DNA from: Candidatus Parcubacteria bacterium
GTDB taxonomy: Bacteria > Patescibacteriota > Minisyncoccia > Sungbacterales > SURF-37
Assembly: GCA_003599755.1 (NCBI GenBank)
Contig: QZJO01000009.1
Location: 150,362 to 214,361 of the forward strand
Direction: 5' to 3'
Length of the DNA stretch: 64,000 nt
The position numbers and the translations under genes were made by a program. Under the pieces are notes generated by a model. The model ran no database searches and had not been told where the DNA came from. It worked only from the letters and a program-made list of their open reading frames with translations. Position 1 is the stretch's first letter. Each line of letters starts with the position of its first letter. Positions 27,056-37,649 of the stretch are shown here, in pieces.

Positions 27056-27096
27056 GCGCCCCACAGAGAAAGACCTCTGCGGGGCGCGTTCGTTTT
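27056..27096 (+). terminator. Intrinsic terminator after IMPase-family gene
   Basis: Stem GCGCCCCACAGAG/CTCTGCGGGGCGC (1 mismatch) followed by GUUCGUUUU. Confidence 0.55.
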
Positions 27097-27173: not shown

Positions 27174-28379
27174 TCACTTTTCTGAGCGGCGGTAATAAAG
27201 TTCCTCCAGTACCCGGGCAATGCGCTTGATATCTTGATTCTTGATAGCCGGATGGCAGCCGATGAGCAGCGCCCGGTTATGTAAAAAATCCGCTACCGGG
27301 AATGCATCGGGCTTTGGCGTATCCTGACCGAGAAATGCATACTGCCGAAGTAAATTGCCGCCCATGAAGCGCCGCGTTTCCACACCTACCCGCTCCAGTG
27401 CCGCGGCTACATCGGCCGCATCGCGGCAGCCGGGCGGCAACTGGCGGAGCGTCACCTGTAGCGCGTAATACGTATTGAATGAGCTCTTTGGCTCTTCTGG
27501 CAAAAATAATTTCTCATCCCGGATTAGCTTCCCGAACGCTCGCCAGTACGCCGCGACGATCGCGCGCCGCTTCCGGTTCATAGCCGGAAGTTTTTCGAGC
27601 TGCACCATGCCGATCGCCGCATGCAGATCCGTCATGCGCAGATTATAGCCGAGCCGATCGAACGCATAGCGCACATCATAGCGCGAGCCGGACGCGAGCT
27701 TCACAAACCGCTCGTTCGTGATGCGGCGGCCGAATTCGCGGATGGAACGGCAGAGATCCGCGAGCTTCGCGTCATCGGTCGCGATCATGCCGCCTTCGCC
27801 CGCGGTCATATTGTGCGCGACATAAAACGATGTCGTCGAAGCATCGCCGAAGCCACCGACGATCGTCTTCCCGACTTTCGCGCCGTGTGATTCGCAGCCG
27901 TCTTCCAAGATGCGGATACGATGGCGGCGCGCCCAGCGCACGATCTTGGGCGCATCGAGACACGGTACGCCGAGCGAATGTACGAGCACAATACCGCGCA
28001 GTCGCTTCGCGCCCGCAGCGGCGTGTTCAAGCGCTTCAAGCGTCATATTCCCCCGCTCATCTACGTCCACCCAGAGCGGCCGGAGACCGGCTTGCAGCAC
28101 CGGCATGACCGCGGTCGCGAATGTCAGCGCGGGTACGGCAACAAAATCGCCATCCTTCCAGCCATAGCGTTCTTTCACCGCAAGAAGCGCGATGAGATTC
28201 GCAGAAGAGCCGGAATTCGCGGCAATCGCCGTGCGCCGGCCGACTGCGCGCGCCCATGCGTCTTCGAACGCGCGAACGAACGGCCCCTGGCTCAATCGAC
28301 CCTGCTTAAGAACGTGCATCACCGCCGCAATTTCGCGTCGATCCGTGATCGGCCAGCCAATGGATACTCGCGTAGACAT
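27174..28379 (-). CDS. DegT/DnrJ/EryC1/StrS family PLP/PMP enzyme; His replaces the Schiff-base Lys (ColD/E1-like sugar 3-dehydratase signature)
   Basis: AIAANSGSSANLIALLA and TSFYVAHNMTAGEGGMIA; aligns to family motif sFhptKnlt-GEGG with H189 at the K position. Confidence 0.7.
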   Translation of the reverse strand: MSTRVSIGWPITDRREIAAVMHVLKQGRLSQGPFVRAFEDAWARAVGRRTAIAANSGSSANLIALLAVKERYGWKDGDFVAVPALTFATAVMPVLQAGLRPLWVDVDERGNMTLEALEHAAAGAKRLRGIVLVHSLGVPCLDAPKIVRWARRHRIRILEDGCESHGAKVGKTIVGGFGDASTTSFYVAHNMTAGEGGMIATDDAKLADLCRSIREFGRRITNERFVKLASGSRYDVRYAFDRLGYNLRMTDLHAAIGMVQLEKLPAMNRKRRAIVAAYWRAFGKLIRDEKLFLPEEPKSSFNTYYALQVTLRQLPPGCRDAADVAAALERVGVETRRFMGGNLLRQYAFLGQDTPKPDAFPVADFLHNRALLIGCHPAIKNQDIKRIARVLEELYYRRSEK

Positions 28380-28388
28380 ACCTATCGA

Positions 28389-29432
28389 TCATTCGGTCTT
28401 ATTTGGATGATCCTTGTACCACTCGTACGTCCGTCGCAATCCTTCCTCGAACGGAATTTCCGGCCTCCAGCCGGCCAGACGCTCCAGTTTCGTAATGTCG
28501 GGCAGCCGTCGCTTTACGCTGCCGGCCGGTGCGGGCTTACGAACCAATTCGCGCGGCGTCCAACCCGCAATTGCGAACAGCGCATCGGCAAGTGCGGCAA
28601 CACTTACCTCATTACGGTCACCGATATGCACGGTCTCGATGGGCTGGCCGTCGGTGGCCGAAGATTCCATGAGCATGCGCATAGCGCGGACCGCATCCTC
28701 GATATAGCAGAACGAGCGCGTCTCGTCCGCACCCATGAGCGCGAACGGATCCTCTCGGCTCGCGATCCGAAGCGAGAGCTGCGGAATCACGTGCTCGTAG
28801 CCCGCGCGCGGACCATAGAAATTATGCGGCCGTACGACCAGGCCGCGCAATCCGTACTTGGTCGCGTAATGAATCATGATCTGCTCGCCGATAAGCTTCG
28901 TGCCTGCATACGACCAGCGGGGGTTATACGGATCTTCGATCACGAGCGGCACGGCTTCGGGCGTAGGGAACGGCAGCGCGCCGAACGCGTGCAGCCCGCC
29001 GGCATACGCCTCGTTCGACGACGTAAAGCATATCTTGGCGCCGGGATTTTGGGCGCGCATCCAATCAAGGACAAAGAAAAGCGAAAGAATATTGATGCGC
29101 AGCACTTCATGCGGCATTTCGTAAAAGTTCTTCGTTCCATTGATCGCTGCAAGATGATAGATATGCGTAAAACCGGTACCGAGTTCTCCGTACGCAGCCG
29201 CGTTGGTCAAGTCAAGCGCCATAAAACGCACGCGCGGATTGGCGATGAGTTTATCGAACGCATCATCCATCCGACCGCGCTGCAAATTATCGGCGCTCAC
29301 GAGGTCGGCCTTGGTGGCGGTAAGCAAATGCCGCGCGAGGTGATAGCCGATGAACCCTGCACCTCCGGTGATGAGAATTTTTTCAGGCGCTGCCATGCGA
29401 TTCATCATGCCAAGCCGGGGCTGAAACGACAA
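28389..29432 (-). CDS. NAD-dependent nucleotide-sugar epimerase/dehydratase (extended SDR)
   Basis: ILITGGAGFIGYHLARHL, YAGTK active-site motif; start ambiguous among several N-terminal ATGs. Confidence 0.75.
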   Translation of the reverse strand: MSFQPRLGMMNRMAAPEKILITGGAGFIGYHLARHLLTATKADLVSADNLQRGRMDDAFDKLIANPRVRFMALDLTNAAAYGELGTGFTHIYHLAAINGTKNFYEMPHEVLRINILSLFFVLDWMRAQNPGAKICFTSSNEAYAGGLHAFGALPFPTPEAVPLVIEDPYNPRWSYAGTKLIGEQIMIHYATKYGLRGLVVRPHNFYGPRAGYEHVIPQLSLRIASREDPFALMGADETRSFCYIEDAVRAMRMLMESSATDGQPIETVHIGDRNEVSVAALADALFAIAGWTPRELVRKPAPAGSVKRRLPDITKLERLAGWRPEIPFEEGLRRTYEWYKDHPNKTE

Positions 29433-30728
29433 TCACGCCCGCGCGGCCCTATTTGAGTGACGGGGCCAAAAATTCCAAATGTCGATGAAACGTTTTGCCG
29501 GATAGCGCCTTGGGTCAATTGCGGCGTATGCCTTGTGCGGCGCGGCAAGGATTACGATATCCGATTCCGCAAGCACGGTCCGGACCGGATGAAACGCCGG
29601 ATCTTTGATGTATTCATCGGTGCAGAGAACTCGCTTGGCCTCGGCCTCGGCTATTTTTTTAAGCTTATACGACAACGAATCGCGCGGATCATCGCTTTCA
29701 CCCTTGAAGGCCATACCCAGGATTCCGACGGTCTTGGTTTTGAGCCAGCCGGGAGCTGCGGCTTCGGCGCCAATAAGCTCACGCAACGGATTTTCGTTCG
29801 CAAACCGTACCGTCGGCACCGCGGCCGGCGACGCGCCGTGGCGGAGCTTCTTCACGATGAAATTCGGCATGCCTTCATTGACAAGCATCGCCGCATGCCC
29901 GAGAAAAAAATTGTTCGAATGATACGCCGCAAGTTGCATCGTGTCCTTCAAGAGGCACGGCCCTGCCGCGAACCCCGGCGATGGCAGATCGCGATTGCGT
30001 GGATAGTCCTCGCGCATCGCTTGGTAAATACGGTGGTAGTCCAGGCCATGATCGGCCGCGATCATGAAGAATTGATTGCCGACCGCGAATTTGATATAGC
30101 GCCAGGCATTCGAGAATAGCTTCGCAAGCTCCGCCTCCACCGGCTGGGCGGTCGCCACGGTCTTGGGAGCTATGTTCCGAAAGAGCTTCGATACTTTCCC
30201 CAGCGTCTGCGGATCGAATGCCGAAACGATTTGGGGCAGTGTCATCAATTCGGCAAGCGCATTGCCCTCTACGATCCGTTCGGGACAAAACGCCACGTTA
30301 ACCCGCTTACTCCGTTCACGAAAATACCGCTGAATGCGCTCGGACGTGCCCGGATATACGGTGCTGCGTAAAATAAGCACCTGGCCGTTTTTGAAATACG
30401 GTAGGTAAGCATCAATAACCCGCGTGATCGCGTGAATGCTCGGATTTAAATATTCATCAACCGGCGTACCCACCACGAGCAACACGAACGCGCTTCGTCC
30501 AATGACGTCCGGAGTATGCGCGGTCGCGAGCTTGCGCTTCTCCAGCGCGCGGCGCAGTTCGCGGTCGCCGTCTTTTTCTTTAAACGGAAAACGGCCCCCG
30601 GCAATCACCTCCAGTGCCTCGCGGTTCGTATCGAACAGCACGGTCGAGACGCCGGCGTTAGCCATCGCCACCCCGAGCGGCAGGCCGACGTGTCCCGCGC
30701 CGCCGACAATGCAAAGGTCGTATTTCAT
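29433..30728 (-). CDS. UDP-glucose/GDP-mannose dehydrogenase family (nucleotide-sugar 6-dehydrogenase; WecC/WbpA-like)
   Basis: CIVGGAGHVGLPLGVAMA, GFAAGPCLLKD catalytic Cys motif, C-terminal UDP-binding domain. Confidence 0.8.
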   Translation of the reverse strand: MKYDLCIVGGAGHVGLPLGVAMANAGVSTVLFDTNREALEVIAGGRFPFKEKDGDRELRRALEKRKLATAHTPDVIGRSAFVLLVVGTPVDEYLNPSIHAITRVIDAYLPYFKNGQVLILRSTVYPGTSERIQRYFRERSKRVNVAFCPERIVEGNALAELMTLPQIVSAFDPQTLGKVSKLFRNIAPKTVATAQPVEAELAKLFSNAWRYIKFAVGNQFFMIAADHGLDYHRIYQAMREDYPRNRDLPSPGFAAGPCLLKDTMQLAAYHSNNFFLGHAAMLVNEGMPNFIVKKLRHGASPAAVPTVRFANENPLRELIGAEAAAPGWLKTKTVGILGMAFKGESDDPRDSLSYKLKKIAEAEAKRVLCTDEYIKDPAFHPVRTVLAESDIVILAAPHKAYAAIDPRRYPAKRFIDIWNFWPRHSNRAARA

Positions 30729-33735: not shown

Positions 33736-35139
33736 TCATGGCTGCGGGATACGCGGATTTGCCGGTCGACGAATCCACCAGCGCGGCTTCAATACCGAGG
33801 CGACAACGGCGCGGAAAAGATCGCGATCCTCCCGCGATACGGTAAAAAAATCACGGAATCGAACGGTCAATTCGGGATACCGGCGCCGAAGATAATACGT
33901 GTAAAGTCCCACGCGGCCACCATAATCCACGAGAAAGGTCAGCGCCATTGCATAGAGTTTTAAGAGGGGTAGAAGCGTGAATGCGATGACGGCATTAATC
34001 GCGATCTCCGACAAAAACCGCTTAGCCAGAAGCTCCTGCTCGCGCAGCGTTACCAGAAACGACTTCTGATATTTGTATACGGCGTAAAGCGGCAACGTGG
34101 TCAATAGCAGGAGAACCAGTGGCAGCGCCGGTTCATACTTGGGCATGGCGAAGTATATGATTGGCGGCGCGACCAGAGCCGCGCCGAGCGCCACTGCCGT
34201 GCCCACCCAGACGCCGTACTTTAGCATGCGCCGATAAATTATTGCCAAACGTCCGCGATCACCCGCTTCCCACGGCAGAAGAACACCGAGCATCGCCGTC
34301 GGCACGAAACCCTGGAAAATCGTCAAGAGATTGACCGCGAATGCATAGAGGCCGACCGCCTCCGTGTTCAGGAACACCCGCACATACCAAACATCGATCC
34401 CCTTTGCCGCCCGGGACACGGCATAGCGCGTAAGAACCCAGACGCCATACCGCCGAATCAATCCGGGCAAAATCCAGCCGGCGGAGGGCGCAATGCCGGT
34501 AAAGAGTTCGCGCCAGCGGCGGAAAAAATAAAATGACGTATATGCAAGCGTGACGCCTGAAGCAATGGCGCCCGCCCACAAAACCTCGCCCAGTGTCAAC
34601 CCGCCTTGCCACCATAATGCAACAAGAAGGCCCAGCCGCGTCGTCTCGGCGATGATCTCGGCGCCGAATGCCGCAAAAGAAACTGTTGCGCGAAAGAAAA
34701 GCACCTGCATCGTACGCAGTGCCGGGAACAGGACAAGAAAGCTTGCGATGCGAACGGAGCCGCCGATGTCCTGATCATAGTATCGGGCGATGAGTTCCGC
34801 GCCGAAAAACACAAGCGCCCATACCGCAAACGCGATAATCGTTTTGGCGCCGATATACTCTGCCGCAAGCCGCTTCGCGTCCTTCCGCTTACCCTCGGCA
34901 GTGGCGCGCGCAAGGTCGTTCGTGACCGCCTCATCAAACAAGCCGCTGGTAAGGTGCACGGCAACCGCAACGGCGGTAAGAATAAGCTGGTAGAGGCCGT
35001 AGAGATATACCGATACTGTCGCGAGAATAAAAAAAGAGCTCGCGATGCCGAGGCCACGGAGAATCAGATGAATAATTTGCCCGCGCGATTCGCCCCAGAG
35101 GAGCGTTTCGCGAAACGAATACGTTGGAGCTCGTGCCAT
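33736..35139 (-). CDS. Polysaccharide biosynthesis protein / Wzx-like flippase (MOP superfamily)
   Basis: ~12-14 predicted TM segments, 467 aa, no soluble domain; location within the glycan locus. Confidence 0.55.
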   Translation of the reverse strand: MARAPTYSFRETLLWGESRGQIIHLILRGLGIASSFFILATVSVYLYGLYQLILTAVAVAVHLTSGLFDEAVTNDLARATAEGKRKDAKRLAAEYIGAKTIIAFAVWALVFFGAELIARYYDQDIGGSVRIASFLVLFPALRTMQVLFFRATVSFAAFGAEIIAETTRLGLLVALWWQGGLTLGEVLWAGAIASGVTLAYTSFYFFRRWRELFTGIAPSAGWILPGLIRRYGVWVLTRYAVSRAAKGIDVWYVRVFLNTEAVGLYAFAVNLLTIFQGFVPTAMLGVLLPWEAGDRGRLAIIYRRMLKYGVWVGTAVALGAALVAPPIIYFAMPKYEPALPLVLLLLTTLPLYAVYKYQKSFLVTLREQELLAKRFLSEIAINAVIAFTLLPLLKLYAMALTFLVDYGGRVGLYTYYLRRRYPELTVRFRDFFTVSREDRDLFRAVVASVLKPRWWIRRPANPRIPQP

Positions 35140-35180: not shown

Positions 35181-37649
35181 TCAAAGCGCATAAATATCCA
35201 CGATCGAGCCGAACCGTTCCATGCGCCAGAGCTCGCGGATCGGCACGCCCGCGATCTCGCCGGAGAGTTCAATCGCCTGATCAAATTCCGCTCCGGCAGG
35301 ATACGGCGAAAACCGCTGAACGAGCTTCAACTCGCTAATAAGCGATCGGGTCTCCGGCTCAAGATCGGATTGATCTCGATAATTGTACTCCACAACCAAG
35401 TAACGATACCCGCGCTCGCGGAAAAATGCGGCATCCCGCGCATCGCGCTCCGGCTTTCCGCGCGCGATGAAATGAAGATTCAGGAATTCGTATGCCGGGC
35501 TCGGATACGCGTCGGACGAATGGCGCAGCAGCGCACGATCCGCGGCGCGCACGCCGGCCGCATCGGCGGCTTCAAGCGCACGGATACCGTCGGGCGTATT
35601 GATAAGCCGCAGGTACGGCGTGTCACCCACGATCTTTTCGCCCGCGGAGATATATTCTGCAATCCAATCCCGCGCCATAAGGCGGGTTTCCGTGCGGATC
35701 GCGAGCATATCGTATCGAAGCGCAAGAACCAGCGGAAAACCGAATACCGCGAGGAGTGACATCGCGGTTATACCGCGCCGCATGACGAAAACGCGCGTGC
35801 TTACAAGCTGCAGCAGGGCATCCAAGCCCGCGCCCGCAAGGATAGCGAGAACCGGTACGATGAACACCAGTGCGCGGGGAATCGCATTGAAAAACGCATA
35901 AAGAAACGAAATATAGGCAACAGCTACGACAACCGCCGGTATGACAAACGACGCTTTGCGCCGCCAAAGTATCGCTGCGCCGACAACCGCGGCCGCAAGC
36001 AACGGCAACTCATACCGCAGGAGAAGTCCGGCATATCCGCCCAAGAATGCGAGCCATTCCCCCATGCCTTTTCCCGCCAGAATGCCGAAGCGACGGCCGA
36101 GATCCCCGCCTACGGTTTCGCCTCCTTCGCCGCGCGTGAATCCATAGGGATACAAAAGAATCGTCATGCCGACCATGAGCACGGCGATACCGACCATCGC
36201 GAGCGGTCGTACGGAACGGATCCTTGTTCGCCAAGATTCGCATCCGAACAGATAATGCGCGAAAAGTCCGGGTATAAGCGCGATTGCGGCTGACGTATTG
36301 ACCGCGGTTGCAAGACCCGCGAATACGCCGGTAAGTATGTACGGACGCCATCGATCGCTCGTGCCGATACCGAAACTCGCGTACCACGCGAGATACAAGA
36401 GAAGCGCAGCCGGCATCCAATGGCGCACCACATGGGATAGCTGAATATGATAGAACGAGAGAGCGAGAAATGCGGCGGCAAACCATCCGGCACGCCGAGA
36501 CCCGGAAACGGCCTGAGTCATGCGCGCGACCAACGCAATCAATATGATGCTGAGTCCAAGGTTCGCAAGCCGGCCCGCCCACCAGAGAAACGTCGGATCG
36601 AGCGCCAGCATATCGCGCCATGCCGCAAGCTGCGGGAATCCGGCCAAAACGAAATGAACTGCCAGCGCGGGCGCGATAACCAGCAAATAAAAATAGGAAA
36701 GCAACGGCGGATAGTTCAGCACCGCGCGGAATGATTCTGCATGCAGCGCCGGAATCAGCGTGCGCTCTTCGAGCATTTTCAGCGCGCCGTAGATAAACGC
36801 CGGTTCATCATTCACCAAAAACAACGGGAAGCCGTATCCGATCGCCGGCAGCCGCAGCAAAACCGCGACCAATAAAATCCAGGGCAGTGGACTTTTCCAG
36901 CGCGCCGGAGCCAAAAACCACCGGGCCAACGACGCGTTCGATCCTTCGGGCAACAGCCGTATCCGCCACGGCTCCACGAGTCCCTCGGAGATGATGCTCC
37001 GTGAAATTTTGGACGTGCCGAGGCGCCGCTCGGTGAACGTTATGGGAACTTCCGCCATGCGCGCGCCGCGCCGCCAAAACATCATGCGCAACGTAAACCA
37101 CCATGCGTATCCGTTGGCGCGAACGTCGGCAAACGGTACGCGGCGCAAGAACTCCGTGCGCATGCAGGAAAATCCGGAGGTGCAATCCGCAAGCGGCAGG
37201 CCGGTGATCGTACGCACGTACCAGTTGCCGCCCCATGATAGCAAGCGCCGCCCAATGCTCCAGTTCTCGATCCGACCGCCGCGCACGTAGCGCGAACCCA
37301 CCACGAGATCAGCTCCTTCAGCCGCGCGGATCAGCGCCGGAATGTAGCGCGGATTATGGGAGAAATCCGCGTCAATCGTTATCACGAATTCGTCGGTACC
37401 GTCGGCAAGCACGCGCGCGAGCGCGTCCTGATACGCGGCGCGAAATCCCCGCGGACCCGAGCGCGTCATGAGCGCAACGCGCGGCTCCTTGGCGGCAAAC
37501 TCCCGCACGAGCTCGGCCGTGCCGTCGGGTGATTGATCGTCCACGACTAAAATCCGCGTGCCGTTTGGTGCGGCCGCCAACAGTTCTGCGATCAGCGAGA
37601 GGATATTCTCGCGCTCGTTGTACGTCGGGATAATGATGCGCGTCGCCAT
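35181..37649 (-). CDS. Fusion protein: N-terminal Dpm1-like GT2 polyprenyl-phosphate sugar synthase + C-terminal ArnT/PMT-like GT-C membrane glycosyltransferase
   Basis: N-term IIIPTYNEREN, VVDDQSPDGT, ITIDADFSHNP; C-term polytopic domain with first-loop motif FLVNDEPAFIYGALKMLE (ArnT/PMT 'DE' motif). Confidence 0.7.
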   Translation of the reverse strand: MATRIIIPTYNERENILSLIAELLAAAPNGTRILVVDDQSPDGTAELVREFAAKEPRVALMTRSGPRGFRAAYQDALARVLADGTDEFVITIDADFSHNPRYIPALIRAAEGADLVVGSRYVRGGRIENWSIGRRLLSWGGNWYVRTITGLPLADCTSGFSCMRTEFLRRVPFADVRANGYAWWFTLRMMFWRRGARMAEVPITFTERRLGTSKISRSIISEGLVEPWRIRLLPEGSNASLARWFLAPARWKSPLPWILLVAVLLRLPAIGYGFPLFLVNDEPAFIYGALKMLEERTLIPALHAESFRAVLNYPPLLSYFYLLVIAPALAVHFVLAGFPQLAAWRDMLALDPTFLWWAGRLANLGLSIILIALVARMTQAVSGSRRAGWFAAAFLALSFYHIQLSHVVRHWMPAALLLYLAWYASFGIGTSDRWRPYILTGVFAGLATAVNTSAAIALIPGLFAHYLFGCESWRTRIRSVRPLAMVGIAVLMVGMTILLYPYGFTRGEGGETVGGDLGRRFGILAGKGMGEWLAFLGGYAGLLLRYELPLLAAAVVGAAILWRRKASFVIPAVVVAVAYISFLYAFFNAIPRALVFIVPVLAILAGAGLDALLQLVSTRVFVMRRGITAMSLLAVFGFPLVLALRYDMLAIRTETRLMARDWIAEYISAGEKIVGDTPYLRLINTPDGIRALEAADAAGVRAADRALLRHSSDAYPSPAYEFLNLHFIARGKPERDARDAAFFRERGYRYLVVEYNYRDQSDLEPETRSLISELKLVQRFSPYPAGAEFDQAIELSGEIAGVPIRELWRMERFGSIVDIYAL

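Follow-up and report, generated by a model that had tools for sequence, protein, structure and literature searches.

The 64-kb stretch of Candidatus Parcubacteria DNA that was analysed here (hereafter the window) carries on its minus strand a tight three-gene operon, which runs from a nucleotide-sugar 6-dehydrogenase (431 aa; 29433..30728) via an extended short-chain dehydrogenase (SDR1; 28389..29408, approximately 339 aa when read from its ATG at 29408) to a His-type DegT-family enzyme of 401 aa (His-DegT; 27174..28379) as its final gene. The stop of the dehydrogenase gene and the start of SDR1 are separated by 24 nt, and the stop of SDR1 and the start of His-DegT by 9 nt. Approximately 90 nt past the stop of His-DegT, within the convergent gap towards an IMPase gene, lies a terminator-like hairpin on the minus strand (27056..27087), with a 14-bp stem containing 10 G-C pairs and a T-rich tail. 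The dehydrogenase scores 237 against TIGR03026, above the cutoff of 189.8, it has kept its catalytic Cys in the motif GPCLLKD, and it is most closely related to UDP-ManNAc dehydrogenases, Cap5O and CalS8. His-DegT is the sole DegT-family ORF in the window and matches the Pfam model DegT_DnrJ_EryC1 (PF01041), which represents fold-type I, vitamin B6-dependent enzymes of sugar modification, over residues 12-391 with 260 bits (cutoff 19.8). In the public record (RJQ36810.1) it is named only “DegT/DnrJ/EryC1/StrS family aminotransferase.”

Upstream of the operon, also on the minus strand, the window contains a Wzx-like flippase (Polysacc_synt; 33736..35139), which in L001/L002 and L004, all close relatives, is located not far from the cassette, and a fusion protein of 822 aa (35181..37649), in which a GT2 domain resembling the polyprenyl-phosphate sugar synthase ArnC (29% identity) is joined to an ArnT-like GT-C transferase domain (PMT_2). 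Two of these relatives, L001 and L004, encode the two domains in separate genes. The sugar product may be used by this fusion protein. A formyltransferase with 36% identity to ArnA-N over 116 aa and an ArnD-like protein (Polysacc_deac_1) are also encoded in the window.

The active-site motif of His-DegT, TSFYVAHNMTAGEGG (residues 183-197; 27789..27833, minus strand), contains a His, His189, in the place of the Schiff-base Lys. The initial annotation had proposed this replacement and both MAFFT and HMMER alignments bear it out. In the HMMER alignments to solved structures, H189 is aligned with His220 of E1 (3bcx), with His188 of ColD, and, in the E1 H220K mutant (3bb8), with the Lys that was engineered there. 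In the MAFFT alignment its column holds the catalytic Lys of ArnB from E. coli and that of two DegT proteins of the Lys type. His189 is encoded by CAC (27813-27815, minus strand) and is not a sequencing slip, since no fewer than two substitutions would be needed to obtain a Lys codon. A nearby conserved Lys, one or two residues off, which would have pointed to a misregistered alignment, does not occur; no Lys is found within 15 residues of H189, the closest ones being K172 and K205. The column is occupied by His in all 123 sequences of the top-homologue alignment.

The replacement of the catalytic Lys by His is the defining feature of nucleotide-sugar 3-dehydratases (PMC8987622), and removal of a sugar hydroxyl, not addition of an amine, is, therefore, the most likely reaction. 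The best sequence matches of His-DegT in the PDB are 9wvy (1e-53), a putative NDP-4-keto-6-deoxyglucose 3-dehydratase, E1 (4e-45), and ColD (4e-35), with all aminotransferases ranking lower. Its AF2 model (pLDDT 93.9) has E1 as highest fold match (TM 0.88), within a range of TM 0.83-0.88 for the superpositions on E1, perosamine synthase and ArnB. Four positions in E1 (D194, Y217, H220, and F345) were reportedly recognized by Smith and co-workers in 2008 as those separating this enzyme from the aminotransferases. In the alignment the corresponding residues of His-DegT (E163/Y186/H189/Y305) are all dehydratase-like: D194/Y217/H220/F345 in E1 and E/F/H/F in ColD, against H/H/K/H in ArnB, with E/Y/F in 9wvy at the equivalents of E163/Y186/Y305. 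The best solved relatives, the highest fold match and the four signature positions thus all agree with the earlier assignment to the 3-dehydratases rather than to the aminotransferases. Identification as one of the DegT-family aminotransferases (ArnB, PseC, Per etc.) was rejected, because His-DegT lacks the catalytic Lys and the His is invariant in its clade. We infer that the enzyme is a PMP-dependent C-3 dehydratase of nucleotide sugars, similar in kind to E1 and ColD, which falls outside both the E1 and the ColD families and is predicted to act on an NDP-4-keto sugar independently of an Fe-S cluster.

In an NJ tree built with a distance cap, His-DegT falls in a monophyletic clade characterized by the motif F-x-V-A-H-N-(M/I)-T (91 tips; 13 out of 16 bootstraps), of which the E1 type is the sister and from which ColD and 9wvy are excluded. 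Asn190 sets the clade apart, and A188, H189, and N190 do not vary among the 32 members compared. The clade is represented in at least 51 species-level genomes, from CPR/Patescibacteria, DPANN archaea, Omnitrophota and Planctomycetota to marine oligotrophs (SAR86, Pelagibacteraceae, Prochlorococcus) and the cultured Neptuniibacter. A characterised member was not found in the searchable literature.

The linkage of the three genes extends well beyond the window. Dehydrogenase, SDR1, and His-DegT are also neighbours in L001-L004, and they are linked but rearranged in L005-L008, with a DegT::DH fusion in L005, a fusion of a dehydrogenase fragment with a methyltransferase in L006, and another gene order in L008. 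Natural fusions thus exist of His-DegT with the dehydrogenase (P0022) and, in another locus (L027), of SDR1 with His-DegT, and Neptuniibacter caesariensis MED92 possesses a four-gene operon in which a second SDR follows (DH-SDR1-DegT-SDR2). When counting is restricted to loci flanked on either side by 5 kb or more, the cassette dehydrogenase and/or SDR1 accompany 27 out of 33 genes of the A-H-N clade, versus 2 out of 18 other His-type genes; about a fifth of the well-flanked clade loci have neither nearby, and in one sub-group of the clade the position of the dehydrogenase is taken by no more than a short two-domain protein of the dehydrogenase family. An abutting SDR2 is present in most other clade members and is absent from the locus in the window and from its 12 closest relatives. 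An SDR at 306-1241 was considered as an SDR2-type reductase but, since it lies 26 kb away beside Glyphos_transf genes, it was not counted as part of the cassette, and apart from this distant SDR none was found in the window. The initial annotation had placed an SDR, a dehydrogenase and a sugar-1-phosphate nucleotidyltransferase in the same locus. The first two belong to the operon. The nucleotidyltransferase is located 10 kb away, and no counterpart of it was seen in a non-systematic look at the gene tables of related loci. A general feed of the product into a NeuB-type ulosonic-acid synthase, as free sugar released via NUDIX and IMPase, was also considered and rejected, as NeuB occurs in 8 out of 51 clade loci; with small HMMs, a CMP-transferase was detected in 7 and IMPase/NUDIX in none of these 51 loci.

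SDR1 has the catalytic residues S-x-E and Y-x-x-x-K as well as an NPRWSY motif; across the family E127, Y161, and K165 are invariant and the triplet reads S-(N/S/A)-E, unlike the T-D-E of RmlB. The best PDB matches of the family profile are 8vr2 (196 bits), described in Foldseek as the Pcryo_0617 oxidoreductase/decarboxylase, and human UDP-glucuronate decarboxylase (UXS1; 192-193 bits), whereas epimerases reach at most 169 bits and RmlB-type dehydratases 113-154 bits. The identity of SDR1 to 8vr2 and UXS1 is just about 25%. A fold model, built from the alignment of the second homologue search, superposes best on 8vr2 (rmsd 2.9 A), in a search that does not separate extended SDRs from one another. 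In one further locus (L092), SDR1 stands beside a Lys-type DegT protein and a sugar C-methyltransferase, a context that fits an SDR1 releasing a keto-sugar. The names given to SDR1 homologues in the source databases disagree and are of no help, “GDP-mannose 4,6-dehydratase” and “UDP-glucose 4-epimerase/UDP-glucuronate decarboxylase” both being in use. We predict from these comparisons that SDR1 is a decarboxylase resembling UXS, ArnA, and Pcryo_0617, i.e., an NDP-hexuronate 4-oxidase/decarboxylase, and the supplier of a 4-keto sugar.

On balance, we lean towards a route from NDP-hexose via the uronate and the 4-keto-pentose to a 3-deoxy-4-keto-pentose, catalysed successively by the dehydrogenase, SDR1, and His-DegT as C-3 dehydratase with ColD-like recycling of PMP. 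The dehydrogenase would make an NDP-hexuronate, which SDR1 would oxidise at C-4 and decarboxylate to an NDP-4-keto-pentose, the presumed substrate for 3-deoxygenation by His-DegT. By analogy with ColD, PMP would react with the keto group at C-4 of the NDP-4-keto sugar to give a ketimine, after which His189 would take the C-4' proton and the 3-OH would be expelled. Since His-DegT has no [2Fe-2S] site, the resulting ene-amine would be hydrolysed to the 3-deoxy-4-keto sugar and ammonia, and an amino-acid donor would presumably convert PLP to PMP again. In most other clade members, the abutting SDR2 probably reduces C-4 to yield an NDP-3-deoxy-pentose. The sugar may then feed ArnC/ArnT-like lipid-linked transfer. 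This sequence of steps is a presumed one; the gene order leaves the reaction order unfixed and the dehydrogenase could act last. A 3-deoxy-pentose nucleotide sugar or glycan was not encountered in the searchable literature.

Another outcome, in line with the colitose/abequose-type product put forward in the initial annotation, would be that SDR1 is a 4,6-dehydratase and that a ColD/E1-type enzyme converts its NDP-4-keto-6-deoxyhexose into colitose, abequose, tyvelose or a similar 3,6-dideoxyhexose, with the dehydrogenase serving another sugar of the glycan. This has precedent on its side: the nucleotide-sugar 3-dehydratases characterised as of 2022 (E1, ColD, SpnQ) all follow a 4,6-dehydratase and deoxygenate a 6-deoxy-4-keto sugar (PMC8987622), and the C. 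jejuni C3-dehydratases reported later, the heptose case, do both as well (PMC10440746). It is also in keeping with the name “CDP-6-deoxy-D-xylo-4-hexulose-3-dehydrase” that JGI gives to several relatives of His-DegT, and with the single SDR1 sequence of the window, which as query has RmlB as second-best PDB match (95 vs. 100 bits) and TIGR01181 (dTDP-glucose 4,6-dehydratase) as highest NCBIfam match. However, with 125 bits against a cutoff of 365 for TIGR01181, 28 against 415 for Gmd, and 33 against 278 for CDP-glucose dehydratase, SDR1 remains far below all 4,6-dehydratase cutoffs and reaches no NCBIfam equivalog cutoff at all. It also lacks the Asp of the RmlB triplet, this position being N, S, or A across the family, and the family profile favours uronate decarboxylases over RmlB by about 40 bits or more. 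SDR1 is thus not recognisable as Gmd, CDP-glucose 4,6-dehydratase or RmlB. Furthermore, the dehydrogenase linkage is specific for the clade and includes gene fusions, which is hard to explain with an unrelated dehydrogenase, and the chemistry of this conserved partner, a C-6 dehydrogenase, cannot be reconciled with a 6-deoxy sugar arising from one and the same pathway and speaks against a 6-deoxy route. His-DegT itself lacks the Fe-S motif of E1 and scores below the RfbH equivalog cutoff (NCBIfam NF011936; 247 vs. 423 bits), and no Gmd, CDP-glucose 4,6-dehydratase, ColC, E3, or abequose/paratose synthase is present among the annotated ORFs of the window. We consider a 3,6-dideoxyhexose, therefore, quite unlikely and do not retain the earlier suggestion; the partner genes suggest an undescribed 3-deoxy sugar instead of the classic 3,6-dideoxyhexoses.

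It is conceivable, albeit unlikely, that C-6 is kept and that an NDP-3-deoxy-hexuronic acid is formed, either because SDR1 only oxidises C-4 of an NDP-hexose, with loss of the 3-OH through the His enzyme and return of the 4-OH through a reductase both preceding the dehydrogenase step, or because SDR1 oxidises a uronate without decarboxylation. The same four enzyme types fit this equally well, gene order being uninformative, and among the matches of the SDR1 profile that rank next are 6zl6, which we take to be a UDP-glucuronate 4-epimerase, and other 4-epimerases that oxidise C-4 transiently. A 4-keto-hexuronate is, however, a beta-keto acid that readily decarboxylates, as established for UXS and ArnA, and true decarboxylases are the best matches of SDR1. 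Moreover, to our knowledge the release of a 4-keto-hexose without dehydration is not established for extended SDRs, and we know of no 3-deoxy-hexuronate glycan. Even less probable, in our view, is an Arn-like scheme in which the His enzyme transaminates the 4-keto-pentose, with the formyltransferase, the ArnD-like deacetylase and the GT2-PMT_2 protein handling a 4-amino-4-deoxy-pentose. All of these domains are encoded in the window, which offers no second DegT-family ORF as an aminotransferase, and SpnQ does show aminotransferase activity in vitro when the reductase is omitted, but in comparable conditions no transamination is seen with ColD or E1 (PMC8987622). His-DegT lacks the catalytic Lys and is dehydratase-like at four out of four signature positions, and the aminotransferase that partners SDR1 in L092 is of the normal Lys type. 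An N-formylation module travelling with the clade was rejected, the formyltransferase occurring in 1 and the deacetylase in 0 out of 51 clade loci; these two enzymes could, in the window, swap the N-acyl group on another sugar.

Extended to the clade as a whole, the route to 3-deoxy-4-keto-pentoses would make the His-Asn enzymes an unrecognised, widespread and Fe-S-free branch of 3-dehydratases, acting on 4-keto-pentoses produced by dehydrogenase and decarboxylase and not on 4-keto-6-deoxyhexoses, a generalization that we put forward tentatively and at somewhat less than even chance. If true, deoxysugars would be made by a further, new route, and the NDP-3-deoxy-pentoses would form a class of sugars so far unreported in any glycan. 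In some loci, TPP enzymes might add further branches to the sugar, or radical-SAM enzymes might modify it. One would then predict a new surface-sugar family in the poorly understood envelopes of CPR bacteria and DPANN archaea and in those of abundant marine oligotrophs. A systematic misannotation would also be corrected, as these proteins are called “aminotransferase” at NCBI and several of them “CDP-6-deoxy-D-xylo-4-hexulose-3-dehydrase” or “E1” at JGI. Since the cultured N. caesariensis MED92 carries the four-gene operon, this hypothesis is directly testable.

Like His-DegT, E1 (CDP-6-deoxy-L-threo-D-glycero-4-hexulose 3-dehydrase; AscC/DdhC/RfbH) has His for the Schiff-base Lys and matching acidic, aromatic, and aromatic signature residues, at about 30% identity, but the residue following the catalytic His is His in E1 and Asn in His-DegT. 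The Cys-rich insertion of E1 is absent from His-DegT: in what we take to be the [2Fe-2S] motif of E1, C-x57-C-x1-C-x7-C with the corresponding Cys numbering, the equivalents of C251, C253, and C261 are I or gaps, and only that of C193 is kept (C162), a Cys also present in ColD. The E1 cluster is held by four Cys (PMC8987622) and, with three out of four ligands missing, His-DegT would be unable to use E3-type one-electron reduction. No ferredoxin-reductase-type domain, as expected for the Fe-S flavoprotein E3, was found in the approximately 56 ORFs of the window scanned with Pfam. E1 is partnered by CDP-glucose 4,6-dehydratase and E3, but His-DegT by a C-6 dehydrogenase together with a UXS-like SDR. 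ColD (GDP-4-keto-6-deoxy-D-mannose 3-dehydratase; 2gms) is of the His type without an Fe-S cluster, as predicted for His-DegT, and is, therefore, its likely mechanistic model; the same applies to the C. jejuni HS:5/HS:11 C3-dehydratases (PMC10440746). In the ColD-type mechanism the ene-amine is hydrolysed, after which PMP is regenerated with L-glutamate (PMC8987622; PMC10440746). Nevertheless, ColD is about 27% identical to His-DegT, falls outside its clade, has S-F-Y-S-H-H where His-DegT has F-Y-V-A-H-N, and acts, in concert with Gmd and ColC, on GDP-6-deoxy sugars. The best PDB sequence match, 9wvy, is again of the His type and without a Cys cluster in the aligned region, but its motif is F-Y-A-G-H-H and it falls outside the His-Asn clade, while SpnQ reportedly carries a [2Fe-2S] cluster and acts on dTDP-2,6-dideoxy-4-keto sugars (PMC8987622).

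In its set of genes, the cassette resembles the Arn pathway, where Ugd, the C-terminal decarboxylase of ArnA, and ArnB represent the same types, i.e., a nucleotide-sugar 6-dehydrogenase, an SDR that acts as oxidative decarboxylase to yield a 4-keto-pentose, as predicted for SDR1, and a DegT protein acting at C-4, and as in the Arn logic ArnC/ArnT-like transfer genes are located nearby. The same three-step logic is shared by CalS8/CalS9/CalS13 and the Pcryo_0617/0618 pair. If the pathway proposed here holds, C-3 deoxygenation has been grafted onto this uronate-decarboxylation (Arn/UXS) route: Arn-type pathways use a Lys-type aminotransferase to form a 4-amino-pentose, whereas the DegT protein of the window is of the His type and, therefore, 3-deoxygenation is predicted in place of 4-amination.

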